This document shows positions 2,220 to 17,944 of a stretch of DNA of 18,251 bases, one piece after another (within the stretch, counting starts at the first letter, position 1; every line of letters begins with the position of its first letter). A program made the translations under genes and the position numbers. The notes beneath the pieces were generated by a model. The model was given only the letters and a program-made list of their open reading frames with translations, was not told the DNA's origin and did no database searches. The DNA comes from Paraspadella gotoi (lineage: Eukaryota; Animalia; Chaetognatha): NCBI GenBank assembly GCA_051294375.1, contig JBJCIZ010000010.1, positions 3,517 to 21,767 of the forward strand, given 5' to 3'.

Positions 2220-2330
2220 GGTGGAGACGGTAGATCCTACGGAAAACGGGGTGGAGGGGGTGGATCCCACAGCAAAAGCGGTGCTGACGCTGGATCCCAT
2301 GGCAAAAGTGGCAGCGGCAGCGGACGATTC
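2220..2330 (+). repeat. ~30-bp G-rich minisatellite, right part
   Basis: Three and a half units reading GGDGRSYGKR/GGGGGSHSKS/GADAGSHGKS/GSGSG in one frame. Confidence 0.75.
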
Positions 2331-3188
2331 AACAAGAAGTGGCGAAATGAGGGACTATTCATGTAAATATGATTGTTTGTGTTAATTATTTATACCCATC
2401 TCTTGATAGTAACGTCTGGCGAGATCCAAATAGTTCAAGCTGGTTGATTTTTTTATGTCAAAAAAGTCTTGCGTTGAAAAATCTGCATCCCATCTCTAAG
2501 TTTCTTTGATGACAAAGCGAGCTTTCATCTTGGATGGAATCGGATCAAGTGCACGGGCAAAAATGTTCTTTTCCTTTGACCTTGATTGCCGATTGGCCAA
2601 CGGCAATCATGATTCGCCGATTCAATTTTTGTAGAATTAACTCGAGCATCAGATCCGATTCGGTTTCATGAGGTTTCTGGGTCCTGCAATAAGAATTTTA
2701 ACGAAACTAGTTTTGTTAATTATGACTTTCATTGAAATTAATCAAGATTTGCCTATTTCTTTTCTTCAGATCAAAAGGATTCATCGGGACGATGCGCGTG
2801 ACCTTTGGGTGAGTGGAATTTGTTATATGTATTAAGGCATTGTGAAAGTTGCTCATGAGCAGTCTTGTACTAAAGAACATTGATATGTAAAAAAAATTAT
2901 TTTTAATTTCTCAATTTTCGCATTAGCCTCGTACTTACCATGGAAAATGTTACAATTTAAAAAGTTTTTTCTTAATTTTTAAAGCTGAGCCGAATTCCTC
3001 ATAAAAAGTTAATGGAAGCATATATAGGTCTTAATAAAAAATTATTTTATTAAGTTAGCTAAAAATTAAAGAAATTTAATTTTAGGTTAATTTCATCAGT
3101 TTTTAAAAAATTTGAACTACTTAATAGAAAAATTTTCTAAAAAGAGTTATATTTTCCTTTATAAACTTTTCCTGAGAAATTGGAATCT

Positions 3189-3388
3189 TGTGGAAGACGA
3201 TGCCGCGAGCAGTTTACCGTCCGTTGCACACAAGGTCCCGAACTTCGGATCGGGCTGTAGTCCGACACTACAGGTGGGTTAGACGCCCCGTCCCGCTTTT
3301 ACTTGTGTGAATCAGCAGGGCGCGAATCCGAGTCCTTTGGGTTGGGAGGAGCTCGTGCTACCTGCGGCGCCATAGGTGCTGCTGATTC
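3189..3388 (-). mobile_element. tRNA(Gly-like)-headed SINE carrying twister motif C
   Basis: Minus-strand head 3388-3309 has A-box-like TGGCGCCGCAGG, CT-CCC-AA loop and B-box-like GGATTCGCGCCC, closed by a GAATCAGCAG/CTGCTGATTC stem. Tail ends in TCCACA like copies H and F. Confidence 0.7.
3227..3309 (-). ncRNA. Twister-like ribozyme, P5-type (copy C, best preserved)
   Basis: Minus strand: CACACAAG-UAAAA-GCGG-GA-CGG-GGCGUC-U^AA-CCC-AC-CUGUAGU[GUCGG]ACUACAG-CCCGA[UCCGAAGU]UCGGG-AC-CUUGUGUG. 8-bp P5, 7-bp P3, 5-bp P4, T1 CGG/CCG, T2 AC/GU. Confidence 0.75.
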
Positions 3389-4035
3389 TCGGACGAGTAG
3401 CAGGGTATGAAATACTACCGCTACAATCTGCTCTTTAAATTAAGAAATAACTGTGTTCATTCGAGTTACCTCAAAACCATTTTAAAATTTTGACATTTTC
3501 TATGCATGAATATGGGCTAAAATTTAACAGGTACAGGCCTGTTCAAAGTGTTCATGATCTATTATTCGAATTTTGATTCTATTTGATTTTAAAAATTTAG
3601 CTACGTATTCTATGTAAAGAAACAAAGAAAAAGCTATTTTATTGTACCGTATTGACTCTGACGAATTAGACTTTTATAATTGGTTATGATAATATTTATT
3701 TACAAAGAAAATTGTTTTTTCCCACCCTTATTTGTTTAGAAGACCCAACAACCGACGCTGCTACTTGTGCGGCGTCGTCGGACATTTAGCCAAACAATGT
3801 AAAAATAAATAAAGTGAGTGTTGATTATAAAACTATTTTGAATTATAACCTCGCACTTCGTTACGACTTCAATATTGATAACATCCAGAAACGAACGTCT
3901 CGCGGCTCGTGTTTGGCGTCGGTCCACGCCACCAAGAAGACAAGACTCGATTTGGAAGCCGAAAATTGACTCGGATATATTTTTCATCAAAAGTCGAGAG
4001 ACTTGTTCTCAACCTTGTTGTTGTTTTTTTCATTT

Positions 4036-4241
4036 TGAAGAGACAGTAATGATTGTTGTATGTTAGTGACAGAACCGTTCAATATAAACAGTCCCTGAGC
4101 TTCGGATCAGACTGTAACACCGTGTTACAGGAGGGTTAAGCGCTCAGTCCCTCTTAACTGCTAGGCGGCCACCGGGCTAGAACCCCGGACTTCTAGGTTG
4201 GAAGACGAATGACTTGCCGTTGCACCAATGGCCGCTTATGA
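4036..4241 (-). mobile_element. tRNA(Gly-like)-headed SINE carrying twister motif A
   Basis: Head 4235-4165 has a 7-bp acceptor-like stem GCGGCCA/TGGCCGC, T-arm CCGGG-GTTCTAG-CCCGG and CT-TCC-AA loop. Aligns along its full length with 17350-17556. Confidence 0.75.
4088..4161 (-). ncRNA. Twister-like ribozyme motif (copy A, partly decayed)
   Basis: Minus strand: GCAGU-UAA-GAGG-GA-CUG-AGCGCU-UAA-CCC-UC-CUGUAAC..GUUACAG-U-CUGA[UCCGAAGC]UCAG-GG-ACUGU; one mismatch each in T1 and T2. Confidence 0.6.
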
Positions 4242-4297
4242 GTCCACCATACTTTTATATTAAAAGTAAATGCAAATAGTCGGAGGCTGGTCTTTTT

Positions 4298-4685
4298 AAA
4301 ACAAGTTTAAGCTGGATCTGCCCACGATCATTAGCGGTAAGCAGCTGATCAGATAATTAATTAATAAGTTAACCAATTAATATTAATTTTTTATTTGCAT
4401 CAAAAATGTTTTTTCAATATGTCTCACCTCTCAATCACAAAACAAGACTTGATTTCCTTCTCAATCACACACTTTCCTACCCACATACAAAATTTCAAGT
4501 CTGTCGCACCATCCACTCATGATTAATTGGCGTTCAAAGCTAACGGGGAAACGGACGAATGAACAGACGGACATTTTTGATGATGATGATGTAGGTTACA
4601 TACGACAAGATTTAGAGGTGGGACGGACGGACCGATAAATTGAATTATAGAGCCAGAATCTGCTGTAAGCAAATCCGGCTAAAAA
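4298..4685 (-). mobile_element. DINE-1/HINE-like non-autonomous Helentron-type element
   Basis: Minus strand starts TTTTT-AGCCGGATTTGC (subTIR 4680-4669) with a nearby inverted copy (4663-4651), then a (GTCC)n microsatellite, a distal subTIR partner at 4310-4321, and terminal CTTGTTTT. Confidence 0.65.
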
Positions 4686-4805
4686 CTATTTAATTATTTA
4701 CCATTTTTAACTTGACTTCTTTGATTAAATTCATTGACCCATTGGCTGCTCGGTATACATTTATTATGTATGTTCATCAATTTAGGAATTTGTATATTTC
4801 ATAAA

Positions 4806-5031
4806 ATGGATATAATAACTAAAGGAATGATGTTGGAATTGTCTAAAGGGTTGAGTGAAAAAGCAAGTTGGCTCATTATCAAAAGTAAATATCCAACAAT
4901 CAGCATCTCTCTTGAAAAATTTCAATCCAAGTTGAGGAAACTGAGATGGAAACGGAAGCATTTAAATACGTGCACAGAAACGGCGAAATCATTCTTAGAT
5001 GCCCCCTTCTTTTCTTCAGGAGATTTCGCAG
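4806..5031 (+). CDS. Exon 1 (predicted) of DDE transposase-like gene: MDIITKG...SSGDFA
   Basis: ATG at 4806 in AAAATGG context within ORF 4734..5078. Donor GCAG|GTATTT at 5031/5032 is phase 1 and joins in frame to the acceptor at 5865/5866 (G+AT = Asp). A possible acceptor TTTAG at 4781-4785 suggests an upstream UTR exon. Confidence 0.6.
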
Positions 5032-5053
5032 GTATTTTTTTTTTAGATAGATC

Positions 5054-5260
5054 ATTAGTAGAGAACGCAAAGTTTTAGCATTTTTACAACGAATTTATTT
5101 TGGTTTAAAATACGGACATGATTCGGCTTGCTGGTTTTAAGCCTTCATCAGCGCTGATGTCCGTATTTAAACCAAAATAAATTCGCTGTAAAAATGCTAA
5201 AACTTTGCGTTCTCTACTAATACACCAACAACGAAAAAAGAAAGGATTATTACAACATTA
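5054..5260. mobile_element. Penelope-like pLTR remnant as a head-to-head inverted duplication with a hammerhead at its centre
   Basis: Arms 5054-5119 and 5157-5221 are inverted repeats (1 mismatch, 1 indel). The centre on the minus strand reads CUGAUGA-A-GGCUU..AAGCC-GAAUCAUGUC (GAAA changed to GAAU). The arm extended to 5260 aligns loosely with 12525-12612, next to the other hammerhead. Confidence 0.75.
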
Positions 5261-5364
5261 GACGATCTTAAAAAGTTATTTCAAAAAAATAATACTATAT
5301 TCTGAATCTGTAGTTGGGCATTGCCTAGGTTCACCCCGCCTAGAATCATGAAACTTTAAGTTGT

Positions 5365-5593
5365 GACCCGGTGGCTCATTGAGTAAAGCCATCAGCTCAT
5401 GACCACTAGGTACCGGGTTCAATCCCAACCCGGTACCTACCCTGCGGGAAGCGTGAGGACGGCCGTAAGCCGCCTTGGGGCATGGCAAACCCTCAAGCCT
5501 GGTTCCAAGCCCTGGGACCTGTCCATGGCTGCAAGAGGTGGGTTATAGAAGTTACGGACAGTCAACTTCAGCCCACGGAGCGCCTTATCCACA
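5365..5593 (+). mobile_element. tRNA-headed SINE carrying twister motif H, in predicted intron 1 of the transposase-like gene
   Basis: A-box TGGCTCATTGAG 5372-5383, CT-CAT-GA loop, B-box GGTTCAATCCC 5416-5426, then the twister motif, a GAAGTT/AACTTC hairpin and tail ...TATCCACA. Confidence 0.75.
5444..5522 (+). ncRNA. Twister-like ribozyme, P5-type permutation, palindromic P1 (copy H)
   Basis: GCGGG(P5)-AA-GCGU(P2')-GA-GGA(T1')-CGGCCG(P1)-U^AA-GCC(P2)-GC(T2)-CUUGGGG..CCUCAAG(P3)-CCUGG[UUCCAAGC]CCUGG(P4, one U-U mismatch)-GA-CCUGU(P5). T1 GGA/UCC and T2 GC/GC both pair. Predicted cut at 5466/5467. Confidence 0.75.
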
Positions 5594-5865
5594 AATCTAA
5601 TTTTGAATACATATGATTAAGATTTTTATTTTCATTTGGCATTTATGATAGTTGTTTTTATGTTTAACTCATTACCTGGTCAAAGAATCACAATTATGGC
5701 CTGCTTTTGGGCTTAATCCTGCTAAACCTGATTACTCCATAATACTCCAAAAATATTTAAATATAAGTAGATTAAAAAAAGATTAAAGGTTTTCATATTA
5801 ATCTCTTAGCAGATGACCTACATGATTATTAGAAGGTGTTTTTAACCTTTTTTTTGTCTATTTAG

Positions 5866-6915
5866 ATAGAGGCATTCAAATTGAAGTGGGATCGACAGCA
5901 AATGACCTTGAAATGGAATATGTTGACGAGCCGATCGTCACAGATCCGTCTGAAGAATCTTCTGTCTCAGGATTGATTCATTTAGAAATAAATAATGGGC
6001 CATTGCTACAACCCGAACTTGTTCCTCCAAATAGAGAAGAGGATAACTACGATTTTCCTGCTCCATTGATTTCAGTTGAGAAAGAACCTGAAGTAGATTT
6101 AAACAGAGATAAGCCTATAATTTTTTTAGGCAGATCTGAGGACTCAGATTATAGCAATGAAAACGGATCAATTGAAAATAGCATCACAAGTCTGTTAACA
6201 GACAAAAAAAGCCTTGTAAGGCAAGTGCAATCATTAAAAAAAGTTATAACAGTTATGAATAAACGAAAGGCTAAAAAAGTTATACAGAAAAAAGAGGAAC
6301 TTAAACACTGTAAGAGAATGATCAATCATCATAAAAAAATTGGAAAGAACAAAGACAAGCAAATACAAAAACTGTCAATTTTGCTAAAACAAGAGAAAGA
6401 AAGAAATCGAAAACTTCAGCTGAAATTGGCGGCGAAAAAATTACGTGAGAAACGGTATAAGGATAAAGTACTTGAAGATAACGAAAAACAAAAAGATGCC
6501 ATGAAGCAGCTTCGTGATTTGTATAAAGAGCAGTCTAATGAACTTGCCGCTTTAGAAGAATTGAACGAGTCTTTAAAAGAACATGAGCTTACGATTTTCC
6601 ATAAAGGGAAGTTTAACAATGAAATCCGAGTATGTGCTTGGGAACTTCTTCAACTTGGGATTTCAGCAAGAAAAATACCACTGGCAATGAAATCTGTTTT
6701 AAAAAGACTCGCTGGGAAAGAATTAAGCAAATGTCCATCAAGAAGCTTTGTATCTAGACTTGTAACTGAGAGCCATTCTTTGTTGCAAACACAGATAAAA
6801 GAAAAAATTGAATCTGAACAGGACGCAACTTTGGCAATAGATTCTGCTACCCACAAAGCAATGAGTTTTCTAGGATCGCAAATTCATTTTAAGGATGGCT
6901 CATCCTATACGCTAG
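5866..6915 (+). CDS. Exon 2 of DDE transposase-like gene: acidic linker, Lys-rich coiled coil, helical domain and first catalytic Asp (ATLAID)
   Basis: Polypyrimidine tract plus TTTAG acceptor ending at 5865; open frame of ORF 5886..6932; donor CTAG|GTGAG at 6915/6916 (phase 1). TLAIDSAT followed by beta-strand-like segments resembles the start of an RNase H fold (Asp codon 6840-6842). Confidence 0.85.
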
Positions 6916-7004
6916 GTGAGAATTATTTTTAAGGATTGCTGAACTAAATTCAATTTATTAAGCACTTTGCTATGTGAACCTTTTTTTTCCTTTTTTTTCA
7001 TCAG

Positions 7005-9022
7005 GTCTGAGAGCCATCTGTAAAGAAGATGCAAAATCATTGCTGGGTTATATTCATGACAGGTTTCAACAAATTGCTAAAAACGGATTGAAAGCGGAAG
7101 AAAATGAATTGGAAAAATTAGCAGAAATAATTTGTAAAGTTGGCAATACCATGACGGATCAAGCACCTGTAAATGGAGCTTTTGCCAGAGAACTTGCACA
7201 TTTGAAAGAGCAGTTGTTGCCTACAATTCGGGCTAATAATGAGTTATCCCCTGACCAAATGAGAAGTTTATCAACAGTAAACGTCTTTTATTGCCAACTC
7301 CATTTAATCAGTAATCTTGGGATTTCTGCCATAAATGCTCTGAAAAAGATGGAATCAAAAGAAAAGTTAATTGATAATCCTTATGCTTTTAGTCAGGAAA
7401 AACCGTCAGTTCAACGTTTCAACCGAAATATTTCTGCAGTTTTCCACCCACATCAAACTGAAAAAAATTGGCGATTGGTTCAAGTATGGGAAGCATTTCG
7501 AGAAGAAAAAAAAATTGAAAACGCTGTTTATCACGAACACAGTAGAGCAGGAATTGAGTTTCCAGCTTCAACAAGAAACCTTATTAATTTTGAACATCTC
7601 AAAGAATTTTTTGAATTTGAAGATGGTACGCTGATATACAATTCCATTAAATATGATCTAAATCATCCTCTAGTCTTACATCAATTAAGGGCATTGAGTC
7701 TTTATGATGTTCTGATCATTGCTCCTTTGTGGAGAATTCTTTATGGAAAAGAACAAAACCATGAATATGCAAAAGTGAAAATCCATATTTTGGAAATAAT
7801 ACCTCACTTGCAGAGTCTTCAAAATTACTTAAATGAAATTACTGAAGGTAGCTCTAAATTGCTTGAAGGAGAATCGCCATTTCCAAAAGTATTTTTAGAC
7901 AAAAGTCGACTTTCCTCTGTTATGGGATTAATGCCAACTGATCATTTTAACAGAAAGCAAATCTTGAAAATCACCAAACTTATTGGTGAAGCAATGCTAC
8001 TCACGTTGATGACTCAGGCAAGAGATTTTTTGTCAGGGGGAAAACATGATGCTCTTCAAGATGATCCAAGTTTTGTCAATGCGACTACCAGTGTACCGAC
8101 CACAAATCAGAAAGGAGAATCAATTTTTGGATTATTGCGGTATTTAAAAGATTCTAAACCGACTGCAAAACCTACTACCTTGGAAGCTAATGCAATGTTA
8201 CAGACGAATAATCTCACAGCGTACATTGATAGCAAAAGTATAGAAGAACAGAATTATCTTATTGAATCTGCACGCAAGTCATACACAGGCAGAAAAAGAG
8301 AAGAGAAATTGATTTACCAAAATTATAAGAAACAGTTGTTGGAAAAACGACGCCAATCAAATAAAGCTAAAATGGAAAAGGATAATGAGAAAGCAAGAAA
8401 AAAAATAGAAATTGTAAGAAAGTTTACTGACAACTATGGAACTCCGTGGCTACAAGATGAGATTCCTACCAAGTTGGGTTTGTTACAGAGTGAAAAAGAA
8501 AAACTTTTTGCAGTTAACTTATTGATCGAATTTTTGCACAAAATTGGTGACGCAACCTGTTCAAACAAAAACGTATTTAATAAGACCAGTAACAAAAAAG
8601 AATTCACTTTGTGTGAAAAACTTGAGCATTTAGAAAAAATTTATGAAGAAAATCCGCAATTGAAAGAATTAGATTTCATTGAACAGGAAAATCCTGACGT
8701 TGATGTTACTGAAGCGGCTGAAGTTGTTACAGCAGAAATTAAGGAAAAACTGCAAAGAGCAGTCAAAAAGCAAGCTGTAAAAAGAAGTCAAGAGTTATAT
8801 AGTTCTTTAATTCAGGAACCTGAAAAATTAGTTAATTGTGAGTTTGAAATTAAAGTTAATGGCGGTTGGCAAAACGGTAGGGTGACAAATATTGTCAAAC
8901 CTATCAAAAAATTTTTGTATTTTGACACTGAAATTGATGGAAAAATTTTAAAAATAAGGATTCTTCAAGAGCTAAAAAAAGGCAATTTGATAATTTTAAG
9001 CCACGGTATTTTACATGAGTAG
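7005..9022 (+). CDS. Exon 3 of DDE transposase-like gene: second Asp (NTMTD), CxxH motif (FYCQLH), Glu (PTTNQKGES), coiled coil, small C-terminal beta domain
   Basis: 89-nt intron 6916-7004 (GTGAG...TTTTTTTTCATCAG) joins in frame to give YTLG|LRA. Asp codon 7157-7159, CQLH 7292-7303, Glu 8117-8119, stop TAG at 9022. The D...D...CxxH...E layout is characteristic of the hAT/P/MULE/Kolobok group. A Kolobok-like subgroup assignment is from memory and tentative. Confidence 0.85.
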
Positions 9023-9199
9023 CATTTATGGCTTTAGGTTGCTACACATAATTAGATAATACTTTAGAATTCTCTATAATATATTTTTTTAATCTTTTTA
9101 CGTACCAATACTTTTTAAAAGTCGATTGCGAGAATTCAGAATTTTTGTCTGTGGTAGTAAAATAATGACTTGCACTCAAGTTTGTACAACGCACATAAT

Positions 9200-9550
9200 A
9201 AGTCTTTGTGACAATTTTGCATTGCATATGAATCTAGTCTTTGTGACTGTCATCTCTCAATAGCTCTATCACGAGCCCTATTGAGAGTAGCATTGAGGGT
9301 AGAACTTATGATCTGGCTGTTGATTCATACCTTTGGTAGTTGAATTAGCCCGTCACTTTTTCACAAATATCCTCAATGCATCTTTATAGAAGTCTTTGTG
9401 ACTTACTCAATCTTGAAAGTCTTTGTGACAATTATGTGATTCATATACAACTAGTCTTTGTGACTGTCATTACGCAATGCTTCTTTGTAATAACCAACGC
9501 TCAGGTTATTAATAAATTTTATAACAGAACTTTGTATCTGGTTGTTTACC
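9200..9550. repeat. Diverged tandem duplication with five exact AGTCTTTGTGAC motifs
   Basis: Motif at 9201, 9236, 9391, 9418 and 9453. 9200-9253 resembles 9417-9470, and an AGAACTT..ATCTGG.TGTT segment recurs downstream of each. Confidence 0.75.
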
Positions 9551-9605
9551 CTCACTACTTAAGTACTTATGGTTTTAATATTTATCTCAAACAGATTACA
9601 GTAAT

Positions 9606-10341
9606 ATGCAAGAAAAACGCGCTACTTTTTTTAGTTATGTCTTGAGTACTGGCGGAGCAACTCTTATAATTCATTTGTCGGTCGGTATGTATGTCCGTCG
9701 GTCTGTCGTTTGGTTGCTCATTTGTTAAAACGGGGAAAAACCCCAATGCAAGCGCCGCCTTCAGGAAATCTTTAAACTATAAAGAATAAAATACAGAATT
9801 TCGATATAGTGGGTTTCATAAATACATGGGTTAAGAAAGTTAATGCGATGCAACACATTGGATGGACCAATCTTGTTTTAACTTTAAATATAAATAAAAG
9901 ATGAAGAGTTTGGTATATCATAAAAATTAGGCAGTTTGGAAACCGTGATTTTTTAAAAACAAAAGACTTTACAACAAAGCTAAATGTAAAAAACATTTAA
10001 TTTTTTTATGATTTTTTTTTCAATCTTTTTAGTAATTTAAAAATACAAAGATGGATTGGACATTAGGTTAGATATTTAAACAACCGGCTTGACCCAGATC
10101 CCTAAATAATAATTTTAAGGTTATTAAAAAATAAAATTAATGATATGTCAATGATTCAAAAGCTTTAAAAAATATTTAATTATCCCTTTGTTTTGGAACA
10201 CTTGATTGTAATAAAATTTATATACTAAGATTCCTTTTTCAGAAAACTTTATTATTTAGTTAAATTTTTGTCAAACAAATTCGTTAAAATTTAAAAGTGT
10301 CTGTAATTTAAAGTAATAAAGTGGCGCGTTTTTTTTCACAT
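9606..10341. mobile_element. Old MITE-like element hosting the 9626-9879 insertion
   Basis: Imperfect inverted repeats: ATGCAAGAAAAACGCGCTACTTT (9606-9628) vs reverse complement of 10318-10341 (ATGTGAAAAAAAACGCGCCACTTT). Confidence 0.45.
9626..9879 (+). mobile_element. DINE-1/HINE-like non-autonomous Helentron-type element
   Basis: Starts in a T run; TATAATTCATTTGTCGGTC is shared with the 4298-4685 element; GTCG/GTAT/GTCC microsatellite; ends with hairpin ATTGG-ATGGA-CCAAT plus CTTGTTTT. Confidence 0.55.
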
Positions 10342-10605
10342 GAGTTTAATAACTTAGTGGTAAAGTGTAAAGTCCTGTAATAATATTTATTTGGAAAGCA
10401 TAATAGACGATTTTATAGCATTAAATTAGGTATCAGAATGTATTTTATAAAAATTAATACATAAAGTTGAAGAAAAAACTGAAGATAAATTTATGATATA
10501 TAGTGCATTTTTAAAAAAATTGTACTAACATATGTTTACCTTTCTGTAAAAATTGAGCATGCAGATTGCACAATTAAGGTATTTTGGCTTCAAATATGTC
10601 GTTAC

Positions 10606-10651
10606 CTTGTAAGAGTGATGGAGGCCTTAAACCACCAAAGTCGGGGGCAAG
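10606..10651 (+). ncRNA. Internally deleted twister-like motif (copy I)
   Basis: CUUGU-AA-GAGU-GA-UGG-AGGCCU-UAA-ACC-AC-[P3 and 5' P4 arm missing]-CAAAGU-CGGGG-GCAAG. Retains palindromic P1, bulged P2, P5 and the T2 AC/GU match. Confidence 0.5.
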
Positions 10652-10992
10652 TTAGCTTATTTAGTAGATGAATGAAAAATTCTTATATTGCTTGCACCAA
10701 TTTCATAGCTAGGAAGTTAGGCATTTTATTATTAGTTGTGCCGCAAGCAATTGAATTTTTAATCTCTTCTGATTTTAATGCTTGGGTTGAGATAATGTAT
10801 TAGTTCTGCTTCATAGTAAAAACCTCGTCGGTGTTGTCATTCTTCATCCCACTTTTTAAATATAATATAAAAGTATGTAATAATATAAAGATAAAAGTTT
10901 AAATATCGTTTTTCATCGGTCAATTTTTTTGAATTCATAATATCGTTTCTTCTAAATAAGAAAAATTATGATACTAAAAATGTTAAAGAGTT

Positions 10993-11029
10993 CTGTAGTG
11001 GCAGACTACAGTCAGATCCGAAGTTCTGA
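10993..11029 (+). repeat. P3+P4 fragment of the twister-like SINE motif (copy D)
   Basis: CTGTAGT-GGCAG-ACTACAG-TCAGA[TCCGAAGT]TCTGA: same loop as copy C with a compensated P4 stem. The 5' half is not recognisable. A weaker fragment lies at 12742-12795 (-). Confidence 0.55.
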
Positions 11030-12603
11030 AACTAGCAAAAAATAGGCGGTAATTGGTCCTGTCTCTGTAGCACTTAAGGTTAATTTTATTTGTAAAATTA
11101 AATTCCTGTTAAAAGCTATTAAATGAAAATATAATAAAAGTTTGTACAATATATATATAAATATATATTGTATTTTTTTTTAATAAATATTTTTAATAAT
11201 AAAGATTTTTAATCTGTTTTTTCAAAGTATTCAAACTTAAAAAAAATCTTTTGTAATCTGATGATCATTTTGAAAAAAATACCTTTGTGAAAGCAAAAAT
11301 ATAAGCTAAATTACTGGAATATCCGAGTATAATATAATTTAAAGTTGTCTTATTTAGAGTAATATGGTGATGTTTAGGGTAAAAACTTTGTTTCTCCCCA
11401 AATTTGGCAATTGATTGTTAACATATTGATTTTTTTGTATTTTGATTTGAAATTCATATTTACTTTCAGGTTAAATGGTAATTCAGTTTTAAAAACGTAA
11501 GCTTTTGCCACACACTTTTGACTCAAACTTTGTGTGTGTGTGTTTATAATGACGTCTTCTGTCTTTCCCAATGATTATTATTATGAGTTATTACGGAATA
11601 GCCACCAATAACCAATATAGGGGCCATATTTCTTTGTCAAACCCTGCAATAACTTGCAAATAGACAAATTAACAAAGAGAATCTTACAAAATTGGAAAAA
11701 GCTTGGAAAGCTTGGAAAAAGCCAAATTTGGTATGCCTAAATACTCATGAAAATATTTATTATAGTAATGATATTTTTTAATTTAACTATGTATTGTTTA
11801 GATTTTATTTTAAAGTTAAGCAAATAATATTTTTATTACATTAGTTGGCTTCATTATATAGTTAAAAGTAAAATTGTTCAAATTAAAATATAAAAAATAT
11901 TTAAAAAATAATTTCATGAATAGCTTGGCATATGGATACTGTTAAAGGTGGTTCATGGCATTTGTTCTTTATTTGTAATATTATTGGCGCCGTCTCCTAA
12001 TATTGCCCGATCAAAATTATTCCAGATTACAGGGTCAGATTCCAAAAAAAAAGCTTATTGGATTCTTGGATTTTGTTCCATAGACTGATAGAGTGAAGTA
12101 TAATGTTGAAAAATCAAGTTAAAAATAAATTATCAAAGTTAAGTATTTATTATTGCCCTTTTTTTCTAATATTATTCATGAGTTTAATTGATTTTTAAAA
12201 ATATAAAAGTTGAAACATTTATTTCACTCTTAACAATCTTTAATTTCAACAAAAATAGGTCAAAGAAAAAGTTTAATTTTTAAATTAATATCCCTGGTCA
12301 CCGAAATAAAGTAAGAATAGAAATTAAAGTGTCGCGCTCCCAGTGTCTTAAACCAAAAGACAAACTCGTGAAAAAATTTAAAGAACTGTTCATTATTTTT
12401 CATAGTTTTTGTTTGACTTTTTGTACTTATGAAAATATGAATTTGTGATTATCAATATGCTAAATATCACCATCTTGCTCCGTCTTACTGACTTTAGCAT
12501 AAATTTTATAAGATTAACATGTATTATATTATTTCCTTTCTTTTTGTTGTGTATAAATAGAGAAATCAAAGTTTGTTTGTTTGATAACAACGATTTTTAT
12601 TTA

Positions 12604-12657
12604 CATTGGACATGTTTCGGCTCTTGCTTTAAGCCTTCATCAGCGTTTGTCTCAATA
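12604..12657 (-). ncRNA. Minimal type I hammerhead ribozyme of Penelope-like element type
   Basis: Minus strand: UAUUG-AGACAAACG-CUGAUGA-A-GGCU[UAAAGCAAG]AGCC-GAAAC-AUGUC^CAAUG. Intact CUGAUGA/GAAA core, stem II, palindromic ACAUGU stem III, GUC cleavage triplet. Stem I pairing is short and offset. Confidence 0.8.
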
Positions 12658-12684
12658 ACAATTTTTTCTCTTTAACATTGAGTT

Positions 12685-12707
12685 AGAGAGAGAGAGAGAG
12701 AGAGAGA
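12685..12707. repeat. (AG)n microsatellite
   Basis: About 11 AG units directly visible. Confidence 0.9.
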
Positions 12708-13318
12708 TTAATATGTAAAATAAATGGTATAAACAGTTTGTTTCAGAACTTTTGATCTGATTTTCTTATTTTTAAGCGGTTTATCCGGCCTTGTATTGTT
12801 AAGTATTGTAAATCATGGTTGTATATCTGCCCGCTTGGTGGAGCCAAGAAATCTTCACATTCTTGCATTCGATGTTCGATTCAAATTGTGGTTTCTCATA
12901 GGTTCAACTTGGGTTTTTATTGTACTATTTTTATTGGATTCTTGTGTATCAAGTCTTCTGGCATTCTTAAAACCTGTATTATTATTATATTGAAACGTAT
13001 TGATGGTCAAAATTTCGTCTCATACAAGTTTGCCCTAGTCACAGATATTTATGTGCTGACCAATTCAATATGTATATTGCATATGTAGTTTGGATGATCG
13101 CAGCCTTATATGAAAACGTCAATTTTTTGGTAATTTTATTCTAGTGGAAACACATTTTAGGGCCTTCACAAGGACTTTTTTGAAATGTTGCATTGATTTA
13201 TATATGCCCACATTTGATTTAATTGTACATTTTGCAGATTTCATTTTTTGAGTGATGTTGAAAAAATTATTAGTAATGATGGTTTATTTCCAGAGACAAA
13301 ATTATTAACGCTGACATA

Positions 13319-13930
13319 ATGAGCGCCCTGCTGTTTTCAGACAGTATCATGAAGAAATTGAGCAAGAAACATTTTGAAAAACTTACTTCTAATTCTGGAA
13401 TTAAGGATATTGAATTGCACGCTTTTTCTGGGGCTCTTGTTGATGACCTAATTGGCCCAAATGGATATATTAACTATCATTTGAGCTCAAAGTACTCAGT
13501 TTTACTTCTAAGTGCAGGCCAAAATGATGTCAGTGCATTAGTTAAGTCGACTAATGATTTGCCATCAAAATTGGCTGAGAGGATTACCATAAAAATAAAA
13601 ACATTAACATGCAAAATTGCGGAAAAATTTCCCAACCTCAAAATATTTTTTATTCCCCTCTGTCCTCGGAAAATGAATTTGGATCAAAAGACAAGGTTTC
13701 CAGAATCACTAAGCCCTGATTATATTTCCGATGTGAACCAAGTTATTCAAAAGGTCAACAAGTCCTCCATCTCTTGCAGTTGTCATCCAAATTCAGTTTT
13801 CAAAATCTGCCATGAAATCTTTGATAAAGACAAGGACTTGGTGGTTTACGACGGATTACACCCTAGTAAATTGGGGCTTGATCTTTTAGTTGGCGCCATT
13901 TGTGACTCTTTTGATGCACATTTGAATTGA
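13319..13930 (+). CDS. SGNH/GDSL hydrolase (esterase) domain protein, retroelement ORF1-esterase-like
   Basis: All four SGNH blocks are present: LFSDS (block I Ser), FSG (II), AGQND (III), DGLH (V). Possible splice acceptor TTTCCAG ending at 13293 with an open frame into the ORF; AATAAA at 14225-14230. Confidence 0.85.
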   Translation: MSALLFSDSIMKKLSKKHFEKLTSNSGIKDIELHAFSGALVDDLIGPNGYINYHLSSKYSVLLLSAGQNDVSALVKSTNDLPSKLAERITIKIKTLTCKIAEKFPNLKIFFIPLCPRKMNLDQKTRFPESLSPDYISDVNQVIQKVNKSSISCSCHPNSVFKICHEIFDKDKDLVVYDGLHPSKLGLDLLVGAICDSFDAHLN

Positions 13931-13968
13931 GACCGAGAAGAGAGAGAGTCGCCGTGCTTCTCTGAAGG

Positions 13969-14163
13969 TGTGGATAGCCCCAGTGGATCTTTGAGATTTT
14001 GCCGCCAGTTACCTTGCTATCCGGAACTTTGGAACCGGCGGTAGGTTTGCTACCGTTGGTTTAACCGGTCCGTCACACTTTTGCAAGCTCCATTCCGACC
14101 TGGGCTAGAACGCAGAAGCATCAGGTTTGAAGATGAAGCGTCAGCCCAGTCCAATGTTATGGC
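13969..14163 (-). mobile_element. tRNA-headed SINE carrying twister motif F
   Basis: B-box-like GCGTTCTAGCCC (14113-14102), matching the GTTCTAGCCC of copies A and B. Tail CCACTGGGGCTATCCACA resembles the copy H tail. A related head remnant lies at 15192-15225. Confidence 0.65.
14013..14087 (-). ncRNA. Twister-like ribozyme motif (copy F, partly decayed)
   Basis: Minus strand: CUUGC-AAAA-GUGU-GA-CGG-ACCGGU-UAA-ACC-AA-CGGUAG[CAAAC]CUACCG-CCGGU[UCCAAAGU]UCCGG-AUA-GCAAG; single mismatches in T1, T2 and P4. Confidence 0.6.
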
Positions 14164-14548
14164 ATTAATGGAAGGAACGGTCGTATTGAACGTGTAGTGT
14201 GATATTAAGTCACTACACATTTGCAATAAAGTGTTTGACGTAGATTAACATAGGAGGACTCACTTGTTGCAAGTGCAAGTTACAACCTGACAGATTCAAT
14301 TAAAAAAATTATATAATTAGTTTTAGGGACAAAAATTTATTTAGGTTTTATCTTAATTCTCGCAATCGACTTAGTATTCGCGATAATTTTTTGATGGATT
14401 TCCTTTTATTTTACTTCATTGGTGTAACCAAATTATTCATCAAACATAAGTTACAGAAAGTAGCAGGGGTTGGTTATCCATCCCCTCTGGGTTGGCTTTT
14501 ATAGCGTGCATAGGAGGTCCATCAGCTTGGAATCCGGCTGTAGTTTAA

Positions 14549-15137
14549 CCGGCCCAGGTTGAAAACTAGAAGTTCTTTCAAATAAATAATGGTTAAGTGA
14601 CTGTTAGAGATAATGAAAATGAAAATAATTTTTTAAATTTATCTTATTAATTAGTGCACGGAAGCATTTAAATATTATTTTATTACTATATAAAGTTTAA
14701 AATTTTTTTTTAATTTTTTTTAATAGATTCTGATAGAGCTTTAAAAGTTAGATAAAGGTTATTAATACAAATTTTTAAAAAATCTTTTGTTTTATTGAAA
14801 ATTTAAAAAACTATGAAATTCAGCCAATGATGATGAAGATGATTATTTTTTAAGGTTTTTTCTATTTTTAACCAATTTATTGTCAAAATTTAAAAAAATT
14901 GTAGTACTAACCTTCATTTAACTTTTCAAGCTCTATAGGAATCCGTTATTAAAAAATAAAATTTTTTTAAAAAAATTTTGTTATTTGTTATATATTAATA
15001 AATATTTAAAAGCTTCAGTGCAACAACCCAATGAACTAATTCAAAAAGTTGCATTGAAAATCGATTTAGTAATAGAAGAGAAAAAAAAAATTTTGAGAGA
15101 ACTAAAAGTTATAAAAAGTGTTCAATTTTGGCTCGGC
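14549..15137. mobile_element. TTAA-flanked non-autonomous TIR element (589 bp)
   Basis: TTAA at 14545-14548 and 15138-15141. Degenerate TIRs: CCGGCCCAGGTTGAAAACT..AGTTCTTTCAA vs GCCGAGCCAAAATTGAACACT..AGTTCTCTCAA. Its interior aligns with 1-346. Confidence 0.55.
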
Positions 15138-15223
15138 TTAATGCATGTGCAATAACCGCCTAAAATTTGACTAAAATCAGAGATTTTTAGATTTGGAGAT
15201 GAAGCGTTAGCCCACTGTACTAT

Positions 15224-16130
15224 GGGTATCCCCACTCAATGAGGTGAGTCAAAAATTTAGAGTGAGTACATGCTCAAACAAAAATTTATACATTTTTAAG
15301 TATAGTTTAAATGTCTCTATACCCTAGTAATTAATTTTTATTATAGATAGGAAAGGCCAAAAAATTTTTAAAAAAGATTTTTATGATAAGTAGGTCAAAA
15401 ATAAGAAAAACTGTAATAATTTTAATTAGGCAGAGACCTTCAGAAAAAAACCTTTTTGATAAAAAATATTTTAATACTATAATCTATGCTCATGATAGAT
15501 TATTTTAATGCTAAATACTTTACCATTTAAATTTCATTGTATCATGTAGAGATAGCCATAGCCCATGAAATTTAAATTCTAATGTATTCAGCATTAAAAT
15601 AATCTATCATGAGCATAGATTATAGTATTACAATTTTTTTGTCAAAAAGTTTTTTCTGAGGGTTCTAGCCTAATTAAAATTATTATTTTACTTAAATAAA
15701 AAAAAATTAAATGTTAAAATTTTTTGATGGATTCTGATTGAGCATAAAAAGTTAAACAAGAAATATAATACAGCTTTTAAAAATTTTTACGTTTTTTCAG
15801 TAAAAATAAAAAAAAAACGATAAAATCATTGAAAGATGATGATTTTTTATAGTTTTTTTGACCTATTTATCATAAAAATATTTAAAAAAGAATTATATTT
15901 TATGTAGACAACTTTTTATGAGCTATCTGAATCTGGTCTTAAAATTTCTTTTAAAAAATTTTGGCCTTTCCTATCTATAAATAAATAAATATTAAAAAAT
16001 TAATTATTAGGGTATAGAGCCATAAAAAAGATTTTTTGTTCTTTGAAAGTATATTTAAAAATGTATAAATTTTCGATTGAGCATATACTTACTCTAAATT
16101 TTTGACTCGCCCTATTGAGTGCGGCTACCC
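15224..16130. mobile_element. Foldback/MITE-like element with long nested inverted repeats
   Basis: Termini GGGTATCCCCACTCAAT.../...ATTGAGTGCGGCTACCC, with arms pairing inward to about 15537/15565. Includes a perfect 41-bp inverted repeat 15472-15512 / 15590-15630. Confidence 0.85.
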
Positions 16131-16496
16131 CTCACAATGGTTTTAGTAACGGTAACAGTCTTTTCAAAGTAGGATCGCTTTACTTACTTAGCAAAAATTT
16201 GAATTTAATTGTGGGTTCATGTATTTTTTCATGATTTGAAATTTGTTTCTTATTCGAAATTCAGATTTTTTATTTTAACATGGAAAAAAATATTGTCGTT
16301 ATCTATCGCTGTCATAAACAGTTTTTGTGCTCTTCAAAATTTTTCAATGATGCTAGCGGCTGGCTGAATAATAATATTACAGGTAATATAGAACTAAATA
16401 CTGCCATTTTAGGATACATTGGTTTAATTTCAAATTTAAGTTTGAATTTGAATTAATGCTGGAAATTTTTACGCTGCTGTTTAAGAAATAATTTTT

Positions 16497-16664
16497 GGTA
16501 AAATTTTACTTTTGCCAATGGGGTTTTTAGTGTCTTTTGAAAAACCATTTAAAATATTTATTTAAAAAAAAAAATAATTATTACCTAATTACCCTAACTC
16601 TAAATCCTTTTAACCCTAACCACCCTTAACCCTAAACTCCAGTCGGCGAAAGTAAAATTAATCC
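16497..16664. mobile_element. Small MITE-like element with internal telomere-like (TAACCC)n
   Basis: Inverted repeats AATTTTACTTTTGCC (16502-16516) / GGCGAAAGTAAAATT (16645-16659), 14 of 15 matching; degenerate TAACCC units at 16589-16635. Confidence 0.6.
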
Positions 16665-17349
16665 CAATTTTTAATAAAATGAATCTTTCATCATCGACAG
16701 CATACGACGACGCTTAGTACGAGGGCAGCAACAACTGCGATCAGCGATTCTCCAGATACTTTAGGATTACTTTTTTCAATCTGGTAAAGATTTTAAATCG
16801 CTGTAAATATTTTATAAAGTGATTTTGTTTCTACTTTTTATAACTTTCAGAATCAATCGCCAGTCCTGTGTGGTCAACGTTATCATCGTGGTTGCAGTCG
16901 TCAAGCACAGATTGTTTTTTTAGATATTATTTCCCCCTTTGTCAATTTATAATAAATAATTTTTTTCTTGACTTTAACATTGAAAACCGGCGAAGGGGTA
17001 TAGAAGTATTAATCACTGAATTTTTGCTCTCTTTCTTTATTTAATCCTGAAGATGGATCATAATATTTATTGTTGAAGAATGCAACAATTTTTGTTTAAT
17101 AGAACTTCAATACAAATCAATTCTTTTACTCTAAATAAACGAATATATTTGTAGGAGTAGTACATTCATAGGAATCAGCTTAAATGTCAATTTTCCAGAG
17201 TATGTTATCATTTATTAGTCGATAAAAAGTTAGTATGGTAGTCAGCGGATTAGTTCAAATGTTTTGAAATGTATTTTTAGCAAAAGATTATGTATTTGTA
17301 GAAAAGATCTCATGTAAAATCCTCAACTTGACATAGAAAATGATAAACA

Positions 17350-17556
17350 TGAAGAAACAGTAATTATTGATAAATGTTAATGACAGAACCTTTTAATATG
17401 AGCAGTCCCTGAGCTTTGGATCAGGCTGTAACACAGAGTTACAACCGGGTTAAGCGCCCCGTCCCTCTAAACTGCTAGGCGCCCACTGGGCTAGAACCCC
17501 GGACCTTTGGGTTGGGAGGCGAATGACTTGCCTCCGGCACCAATGGCCGCTGATGA
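17350..17556 (-). mobile_element. tRNA(Gly-like)-headed SINE carrying twister motif B
   Basis: Head 17550-17479 (GCGGCCATTGGTGCCGGAGG...TTCGCCTCCCAA...GGTTCTAGCCC) resembles tRNA-Gly; dispersed paralogue of 4036-4241. Confidence 0.75.
17401..17476 (-). ncRNA. Twister-like ribozyme motif (copy B, partly decayed)
   Basis: Minus strand: AGCAGU-UUA-GAGG-GA-CGG-GGCGCU-UAA-CCC-GG-UUGUAAC..GUUACAG-CCUGA[UCCAAAGC]UCAGG-G-ACUGCU; close relative of copy A. Confidence 0.6.
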
Positions 17557-17580
17557 ACGGTTGGTGGATTTTAGTCCTCC

Positions 17581-17944
17581 ATAAACATTTTCTACAGTAA
17601 AAATGATCATAATTGATTCTCTGGAAAAGGTATGGAACCTTAGTTTTTACTGTAGAAAATGTTTATTATTTTTTATGCCACGAGGGTCGCGCATTTGATT
17701 CGTCGGCCGTAGGTTAAACTGGCTTTAACATGGAATCAAAGGATTTTCTACTTAAATTTATAGTACATCATTAATTTCGCCATTTATTTACCTTTACAAT
17801 AAATAAACTTATTCACGATTTATTCGACATTTACGTCATTCGAGACTTAGAAAGCCTTGCTCCATGTTAAAGCCAGTTTAACCTACGGCCGACGAATCGA
17901 ACGCGAGAACCTCATGGCATAAATAATGATAAACATTTTCTACA
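17581..17944. mobile_element. Palindromic MITE-like element with an extra terminal inverted copy
   Basis: Arms 17651-17750 / 17846-17944, including a perfect 38-bp inverted repeat 17697-17734 / 17861-17898. Additional perfect 23-bp inverted repeat 17581-17603 / 17644-17666. Confidence 0.8.

Follow-up and report, generated by a model that had tools for sequence, protein, structure and literature searches.

To our knowledge, twister ribozymes are widespread in eukaryotes and have almost no assigned role. The closest described systems are the following. In animals, Helenus elements have LTRs with a tRNA-like part, TSDs of 4 bp and solo LTRs (Kojima 2024, PMC10886601), and plant LTR retrozymes combine a ribozyme in the LTR with a 4-bp TSD, solo LTRs and a proposed circular RNA intermediate (Cervera et al. 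2016, PMC4918200). Dimeric action is described for Penelope hammerheads whose stem III is palindromic (PMC6765202); in these minimal hammerheads a short palindrome takes the place of the stem, and each of two copies supplies what the active site of the other lacks (PMC6765202; PMC7761336). With regard to the twister itself, P1 is dispensable in vitro and twisters without P1 cut at a near wild-type rate (PMC5408937).

The window, i.e. the whole stretch of 18,251 nucleotides that was analysed, contains five elements (E1-E5, Table 1), in which a tRNA-like segment is followed by a twister-type fold. All five locations and strands agree with the original prediction. The assumed single SINE lineage gives way to about four diverged families (E1; E2 and E5, 85% alike; E3; E4). 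The best explanation, to which we assign a probability of roughly 55%, is that the elements are solo LTRs left by miniature LTR retrotransposons of the Helenus type and that their ribozyme would cut as a strand-swapped pair. What the analysis shows is the anatomy, the ends, the flanking duplications, the high copy number, the pairing of the majority letters and the palindromes.

Table 1. Positions of the elements, their parts and related remnants in the window
Feature	Position	Strand	Details
E1, solo-LTR-like element, TG...CA	3189..3425	-	237 bp; breakpoints and fold descriptor
E1 tRNA-like part	about 3379-3310	-	
E1 twister core	3309-3227	-	GA 3292; 6-mer 3287-3282; predicted cut 3281/3280; L4 3249-3242
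E1 flanking duplication ATCT	3185..3188, partner 3426-3429	.	4 bp
E2	4036..4249	-	214 bp; family of E5, shorter 5' extension
E2 tRNA-Gly-like part	4235-4164	-	
E2 twister		-	GA 4149; predicted cut 4138/4137
E3, TG...CA	5309..5593	+	285 bp; 56-nt 5' extension
E3 tRNA-like part	5365-5437	+	exact B box at 5416
E3 twister		+	GA 5455; 6-mer CGGCCG; predicted cut 5466/5467; T1 GGA/UCC
E3 flanking duplication AATC	5305..5308, partner 5594-5597	.	4 bp
Held-out decayed copy	10605..10655	+	20.5 bits; outside the training set
Remnant, P3, P4 and L4 only	10993..11030	+	32.5 bits; 88% like E1 over 34 nt
38-bp repeated segment adjoining the E4 3' end	13931..13968	-	common to related elements with differing interiors
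E4, TG...CA	13969..14217	-	249 bp; older low-copy family; without flanking duplication
E4 twister		-	GA 14074; predicted cut 14063/14062
Decayed remnant	14520..14560	-	palindromic 6-mer, UAA, L4-like loop; by eye, not a model match
Fragment of E4-type tRNA-like head	15189..15214	-	88% over 26 nt
E5, TG...CA	17350..17581	-	232 bp
E5 tRNA-Gly-like part	17550-17478	-	
E5 twister		-	GA 17463; predicted cut 17452/17451
E5 flanking duplication TAAACA	17344..17349, partner 17582-17587	.	6 bp, exact

The elements resemble Helenus TRIMs and TRIMp3 in their tRNA-like A and B boxes within a unit bounded by TG...CA, the sequence upstream of these boxes, their state as (here probable) solo LTRs and the several families per genome. 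However, in most published Helenus LTRs little follows the tRNA part, whereas here about 80 nt of twister and a tail of 50-80 nt come after it. Furthermore, one family has a 6-bp instead of a 4-bp duplication, and the PBS and PPT of full Helenus elements were seen neither in the window nor among the contig rows listed. The examined text of Kojima 2024 reports no ribozyme (the sole mention is in the title of a cited work), and a motif search of the supplement, combined with a check of part of it by eye, revealed no twister; two published wasp Helenus LTRs appear by eye to possess a hammerhead-like core at the same position. Plant LTR retrozymes (PMC4918200; PMC7761336) are likewise non-coding LTR elements with a self-cleaving ribozyme, which in our case is a predicted one. 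They differ in their type III hammerhead, their plant hosts and in being said to be promoterless, while the present elements come from an animal and combine a twister with a tRNA-like Pol III segment. Minimal Penelope hammerheads belong to a different ribozyme class and a different retroelement class. In Schistosoma, Sm-alpha also places a ribozyme behind a Pol III promoter, but this ribozyme is a hammerhead and the element a tandem non-LTR repeat (PMC6765202). The T-variants of Perere-3 are twister variants in retroelements, but derive from the P1 type and lie 5'-terminally in an RTE LINE (PMC8501958). Our literature searches turned up no description of a twister ribozyme in a tRNA-bearing LTR.

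The claimed order of the fold (P5 - linker - P2' - GA - 3 nt - 6 nt - UAA - P2 - 2 nt - P3 - P4 - P5') is present in all five elements, together with an L4 of 8 nt (U-NNN-AA-G-Y) and the conserved GA and U^AA in L1. The cut sites predicted for E1 and E3 coincide with those proposed before, and three further ones are predicted for E2, E4 and E5. Part order, GA, U^AA, 8-nt L4, T1, T2 and P4 correspond to Rfam twister P5 (RF02684; review PMC5408937). In contrast to that family, P1 is loop-less, a P3 hairpin is present, and P2 consists in every copy of 3 bp with a 1-nt bulge (Rfam consensus: 4 bp), a bulge that had been missed; P4 has 5 bp. A descriptor modelled on the Rfam Twister-P5 layout (maximum 13) gave scores of 13, 11, 13, 11 and 12 for E1 to E5, which 0, 2, 0, 4 and 1 of 1000 dinucleotide shuffles of the respective element reached; antisense strands scored 0-7. 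In a five-row alignment, with the structure derived from those same five sequences, 91% of the cells were paired (slid controls: 26-52%) and 11 of 22 pairs changed on both sides; 0 of 500 shuffles matched this.

In the letters of the window itself, 72 of 80 core pairs are intact, T1 and T2 are each broken in three of the five copies, and both pseudoknots (3 and 2 bp) are intact in E1 and E3, with few independent families behind this comparison. The described T1 covariation exists, but it is carried by one family only (E3 versus the rest), and the P4 pair UCAGA/UCUGA attributed to the five elements actually stems from the remnant near 11011-11028 (+). Single-strand MFE structures of these letters, computed without pseudoknots, contained the expected P3/P4/P5 fold for E1 and E2 and lacked it for E3, E4 and E5. 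The Rfam check that had been proposed did not bear out the assignment: RF02684 matched E3 alone, with 12.1 bits at a gathering cut-off of 37.6, and E1, E2 and E5 gave no match. E4 was covered by the whole-window Rfam search, which returned six chance-level matches and neither a twister nor a tRNA. Since this twister variant escapes Rfam, such ribozymes are probably under-counted.

Thousands of contigs are related to the elements, and the depth of E1 to E3 in run X1 is about 4,000-20,000 times that of single-copy DNA, a figure that gives no exact copy number; run X5 from a second study has the same depth pattern. Among the contig variants listed (40 of 124 rows, unphased), the commonest letter repairs five of the six broken core pairs of E2 to E4, and the sixth is repaired in 48% of the depth. 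In these rows, T2 is thereby restored in E2 and E4 and T1 in E2 (T1 of E4 in 48% of the depth), and the commonest letter also mends P5 of E2 and E3 and the B box of E1. Among the listed relatives of E4, 21% of the depth has another letter at the catalytic G of GA (X1). We regard it as highly probable that the fold is held under selection, and a catalytic function, as predicted from the fold, as quite probable.

Concerning the postulated Pol III head, A- and B-like boxes are indeed present, but the heads are degenerate. ARAGORN with default settings called no tRNA in the window, and at ps85 it made four calls, Gly-like ones for E2 and E5 among them. The 59 calls at ps70 were dismissed as noise, the best of them (5430-5525) being the twister region mis-folded as a tRNA. 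Scored against the general A/B box consensus, the B boxes have 0-2 mismatches and lie 43-52 nt after the A-like box; the A and B boxes as a whole are weakest in E4. The twister begins 24-28 nt behind the B box. The presence of a twister-type P5 fold downstream of a tRNA-like Pol III segment is upheld, with catalysis as a prediction.

The true 5' ends lie 8-56 nt beyond the limits given originally. Contig breakpoints set the ends of E1, E2 (3' end), E3 and E4 (5' end) independently; for E1, contigs start or stop at 3188-3193 and 3413-3427, and for E2, 106 contigs diverge at 4036, where the flank is not common to them. All five elements have TG...CA termini, and E1, E3 and E5 are flanked by exact duplications of 4, 4 and 6 bp, respectively. 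Exact duplications were found for 61 of 5729 random TG..CA pairs, which corresponds to a chance of about 1% per copy. The flanks of E2 match at only four of six positions, and no flanking duplication was found for E4. These ends fit the footprint of integrase-inserted LTR sequence, as known from Helenus solo LTRs (PMC10886601). The TG...CA ends and the short flanking duplications make it likely that the elements are solo LTRs from a miniature, non-coding LTR retrotransposon of the Helenus type and not SINEs, and we consider an LTR/integrase origin as probable. A two-LTR element, a PBS or a clear PPT was not seen in the window or the contig rows listed. The 38-bp segment beside E4 is possibly internal-region sequence; it has a depth of about 1800 versus 109, loose ends and a joint (13981-14165), and lacks a TGG-type PBS.

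In place of a P1 hairpin within one strand, every element carries a loop-less 6-mer, the self-complementarity of which had escaped notice. Including one held-out copy, six of six copies have such a palindrome, compared to 50 of 1192 6-mers within the elements (4%) and four of 64 other GA-N9-UAA sites. All three pairs of the 6-mer vary on both sides, even the innermost one (CG vs GC), for which intrastrand pairing is impossible. In nested folding, the swapped dimers of E1 and E2 lie 10-12 kcal/mol below two monomers, and the unconstrained dimer fold of both is this swapped dimer. The palindromes suggest that the two LTRs of a full element together build a strand-swapped double twister, which would release a unit RNA for circularisation in the manner of plant hammerhead retrozymes.

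A model built from the five copies was also run on the window, and matches to its own training copies were not counted. The held-out copy retains P2'-GA-UGG-AGGCCU-UAA-P2 and a loop with CCA, has lost P3 and the 5' side of P4, and displays with AGGCCU a new perfect palindrome; its T1 (UGG/CCA) could have arisen by two CpG decays and need not be compensatory. Neither a candidate duplication at the 10609 remnant nor a 14-bit match at 12742-12794 was considered strong enough. The window further contains a decayed end of the Penelope type that carries a minimal hammerhead. Homolog searches with two neighbouring ORFs were empty, and the ESM Atlas placed these ORFs only in eukaryotic, invertebrate-type clusters. 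A twister pattern scan of viral contigs gave no matches. The scan of metagenomes gave 120 loci from 18 of 64 parts, all of which were screened by script; we treat them as chance matches, since none of the 25 top-ranked ones has the full fold.

It is conceivable, that the same LTR-type elements carry a monomeric twister with the 6-mer as a mini-hairpin of 1-2 bp, which would trim the Pol III transcript by removing the tRNA-like head or setting the 3' end, followed by linear LTR copying without a circle. Since P1 is dispensable in vitro (PMC5408937), cleavage may proceed in a monomer that has no partner. The gap could be spanned by six nucleotides, and Schistosoma T-variants with an altered P1 are active (PMC8501958). 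However, this leaves both the covarying innermost pair and the excess of palindromes unexplained, and nested folding puts a 1-bp mini-P1 2-4 kcal/mol above an open loop, which makes the monomer unlikely in our view; that a dimer is needed or strongly favoured appears somewhat better than an even bet. A palindromic loop would also suit a catalytically dead relic that is retained as a dimerisation or packaging signal of retroelement RNA, and the low Rfam score and the atypical P2 are in line with this. Yet GA, UAA, the U/AA/G positions of L4 and both pseudoknots are maintained across four families despite different stems, which exceeds the needs of a kissing loop, so that we rate a dead relic as very improbable.

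With regard to the mode of insertion, tRNA-like A/B boxes, a size of 214-285 bp and a very high copy number would suit genuine SINEs of tRNA origin that a LINE copies and whose central domain is the twister. No sense-strand T4 run occurs in the five copies, which is not significant, the odds being roughly even per copy by chance. The element ends largely refute this reading: the repeat unit begins with a conserved extension 15-56 nt upstream of the tRNA-like part, the fixed CA end of the five elements lacks a poly-A or simple-repeat tail, and the duplications are short and of fixed length. Target-primed copying cannot rebuild sequence upstream of the Pol III transcript start, and the extension therefore counts for an LTR origin. 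A ribozyme so close behind the B box would, moreover, cut the promoter off a monomeric RNA. We thus consider the SINE label, which these features contradict, the least credible of all. Penelope/Naiad-type retrozyme-like units or short elements of DDE transposons (TGT...ACA), with a twister for end processing, would agree with the unseen internal region or PBS, with the Penelope-type end in the window, and with E4, which has no duplication and a 38-bp extension close to the PLE 'tail' of 30-40 bp (PMC8557442). Against them stand the exact duplications at fixed TG...CA ends in three of five copies and the lack of tandem or inverted partial copies and of microsatellite targets at the five elements. 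Moreover, the termini share an inverted similarity of only about 5 bp, less than a typical MITE would have. Such an origin is improbable, though less so than a dead relic.

For solo LTRs with a strand-swapped ribozyme, the following cycle can be proposed. A full element would consist of an LTR, a short internal part and a second LTR. Pol III would initiate at the tRNA-like box of the first LTR and read into the second one, and the 6-mers of both LTRs would pair with one another, so that each active site would combine the 5' half of either LTR with the 3' half of its counterpart. Cleavage at both U^A sites would yield an RNA of unit length whose ends, a 5'-OH and a cyclic phosphate, would be kept together by P2/P5, and a host RtcB-type ligase might close this RNA to a circle. 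With a single ribozyme copy, this circle would cut poorly. An autonomous LTR element would then supply the RT and integrase for copying the circle and for inserting DNA in full, multimeric or solo-LTR form; the partner might be Gypsy-like for the 4-bp duplications and possibly of another group for the 6-bp one. We give the circular RNA intermediate a little less than an even chance. More tentative, and rather doubtful as a whole, is an animal Pol III LTR retrozyme with an obligate double twister that fires only with both LTRs on one transcript, gives a circle that cannot re-cut itself and has seeded tens of thousands of insertions.

The fixed place of a twister in a high-copy element, in four diverged families, gives this ribozyme a testable job. 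If the proposed reading is true, it would join Pol III TRIMs with LTR retrozymes, two separately described classes, would extend LTR retrozymes to animals and would provide a natural dimer-dependent twister. It offers an answer to the question, how the short Pol III transcript of LTR elements with a tRNA promoter gets defined ends and rebuilds both LTRs. Together with the overlooked hammerhead-like core of wasp Helenus-2 LTRs, it would mean that different ribozymes were recruited more than once, and to one and the same position, by Pol III LTR elements.

The twister layout of the original prediction was confirmed in all five window repeats (E1-E5). Read in the same orientation as its tRNA-like part, each of them runs P5, linker, P2', GA, T1, a 6-mer, UAA, P2, T2, P3, P4 with an 8-nt loop, and P5', which is the order of parts in the Rfam Twister-P5 consensus. 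With Rfam itself, E3 was aligned at only 12.1 bits vs. a cut-off of 37.6 bits, with a P1 loop of zero nucleotides and P3 placed as an insert, and no twister match was obtained for E1, E2 and E5. With a descriptor derived from Twister-P5, E1-E5 score 11-13 out of 13; when 1000 shuffles were made of each element, 0-4 of them came up to its score. In the five-copy alignment, half of the pairs (11/22) vary in both partners, and pairing drops to 26-52% in slid controls, but these statistics are not independent, since the structure was derived from the same five sequences. The core pairs are mostly intact in the window letters (72/80), and in E1 (core 3309-3227, minus strand) every one of them is. 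The twister reading of the central fold is well supported, and cleavage at the U^A site is predicted.

Public contig sets under the same organism code were aligned to the window at 80% likeness for E1-E4. Contig depth, which does not equal exact copy number, amounts in run X1 to 86-112 over unique DNA, 4-5 x 10^5 over E1, up to 2.5 x 10^6 over E2 and 1.3-1.4 x 10^6 over E3; the pattern is the same in run X5 from a separate study, and the relatives of E4 reach a depth of about 30-fold. The commonest letter among related contigs mends the broken core pairs at 4132 (T2), 4146 (T1), 5513 (P4), 14034 (P4) and 14056 (T2), and at 14030 (T1 of E4) the pairing letter stands at 48%; the variant tables are unphased, and the letters of E1-E3 come from 40 of 124 rows. 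Related contigs also mend the P5 stems of E2 and E3, as well as E1's B box. For E4, the outcome of the repair had been predicted ahead of its contig comparison. However, the G of the GA motif differs in 21% of the depth of the E4 relatives, which counts against selection on the fold.

Coordinates of the five elements and of further features in the window
Feature	Position (strand)	Contig start/exit points	Flanking duplication or remark
E1	3189..3425 (-)	3188-3193; 3413-3427	exact, 4 bp
E2	4036..4249 (-)	4036	4/6 match
E3	5309..5593 (+)	5309; 5593-5594	exact, 4 bp
E4	13969..14217 (-)	14217	none in the flanks
E5	17350..17581 (-)		exact, 6 bp; ends placed by homology to E2
Decayed sixth copy	10617
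Two short arrays, GC-rich unit of ~30 bp	387-539; 2232-2324		either side of a CT-rich low-complexity stretch
Further repeat of very high copy	4330-4700		depth up to 1.7 x 10^6
Inverted repeat with minimal hammerhead	5036-5239		core 5151 (minus); repeated modestly
Two long ORFs	5826-9022 (+)		probable intron between them, ~6920-7005
GIY-YIG-like remnant, then minimal hammerhead	12570-13270 (-)		decayed, read by eye; core 12643, palindromic stem III
Weak twister-like match	12742-12794 (-)		14.3 bits
GDSL/SGNH esterase-like ORF	13280-13930 (+)		Pfam score below cut-off, Atlas 0.96
Long inverted repeats, nested, MITE-like	15224-16130; 15447-15655; 17651-17944

The ends defined by the contigs lie 8-56 nt further out than the 5' limits set originally, and at these revised ends all five elements have TG...CA termini. 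Of 5729 random TG..CA pairs taken from the window at a spacing of 200-300 bp, 61 are flanked by an exact duplication of this kind. The tRNA-like part begins 15-56 nt inside the element, its B box terminates 24-28 nt upstream of the GA, and E1-E5 have no 3' tail. Since a SINE begins where Pol III initiates and finishes with a tail, the elements are better read as solo LTRs than as SINEs. We replace the SINE label by probable Helenus-type solo LTRs, on the basis of the TG...CA ends, the duplications, the sequence upstream of the tRNA-like part and the lacking tail. No two-LTR copy with PBS and PPT was seen in the window; a 38-bp segment attached to E4, without a TGG-type PBS, may be internal-region sequence. 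The stop codon of the esterase-like ORF adjoins this segment, the final 30 bp of the ORF being single-copy.

The surrounding DNA is eukaryotic, AT-rich (32% GC) and repeat-dense. A homolog search by sequence found none for the neighbouring ORFs, whose only look-alikes are of invertebrate type (ESM Atlas clusters). The two long ORFs, for which neither a Pfam domain nor homologs were found, possibly encode a DNA transposase, which is a guess.

The 6-mer in the position of P1 is self-complementary in all five elements and likewise in the decayed sixth copy, which was found by a model trained on E1-E5 and not on this copy. The background is 50 of 1192 6-mers inside the elements and four of 64 other GA-N9-UAA sites. 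All three pairs of the 6-mer change on both sides, and the central pair cannot form within one strand. For E1 and E2, a strand-swapped dimer comes out 10-12 kcal/mol lower than a pair of monomers in nested folding without pseudoknots. This resembles the hammerheads of Penelope elements, which function as dimers owing to a palindromic stem III (PMC6765202). Activity of the E1-E5 twister as a monomer nevertheless stays a live rival, since P1 of twister is dispensable in vitro (PMC5408937).

The window also holds two minimal hammerheads of the Penelope kind. One follows the GIY-YIG-like remnant, and together they make up the 3' terminus of a Penelope-like element; the other lies in an inverted repeat, as is typical of an inverted Penelope end. 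The weak twister-like match falls within the Penelope-like remnant and has 19 of 21 nt in common with P4/L4 of the remnant at 10993-11030; it may be due to chance.

In Kojima 2024 (PMC10886601), Helenus, a miniature LTR retrotransposon (TRIM) of Pol III type, has tRNA-like boxes inside its LTR, 4-bp TSDs in animals and many solo LTRs; in this kind of LTR it matches E1-E5, which also hold tRNA-like boxes. No twister was seen in the portion of its supplement covered by a motif search and by eye. In Helenus-2_SyJa-LTR and Helenus-2_SyUm-LTR from gall wasps (DataS1), a three-stemmed hammerhead-like core of type III, its loops I and II complementary and 12 nt long, was seen by eye directly behind the tRNA part; it goes unmentioned in the paper. 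A full-text literature search, within a reach that leaves aside most subscription papers and Repbase/Dfam, turned up neither a SINE, TRIM or LTR that carries a twister nor a twister that is dimeric in nature, and the term 'twister' is absent from the part covered of bioRxiv 10.64898/2026.07.22.740005. Judged by their sequences, E1-E5 would join features of Pol III TRIMs and LTR retrozymes with an unusual, predicted twister with a palindromic P1.

For these elements we infer a cycle of two-copy transcript, cleavage, circle and copying. The Pol III transcript of a full element would contain two ribozyme copies, one in each LTR, and their swapped pairing on one RNA would be topologically nested. 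Cutting at both U^A sites would free a unit RNA with its ends held together for RtcB-type ligation, as PMC7229834 showed for animal hammerhead retrozymes. The resulting one-copy circle would resist re-cutting, and copying it could give DNA in solo, full or multimeric form, a scheme put forward for plant retrozymes (PMC4918200). Such copying of the circle could explain why solo units dominate.
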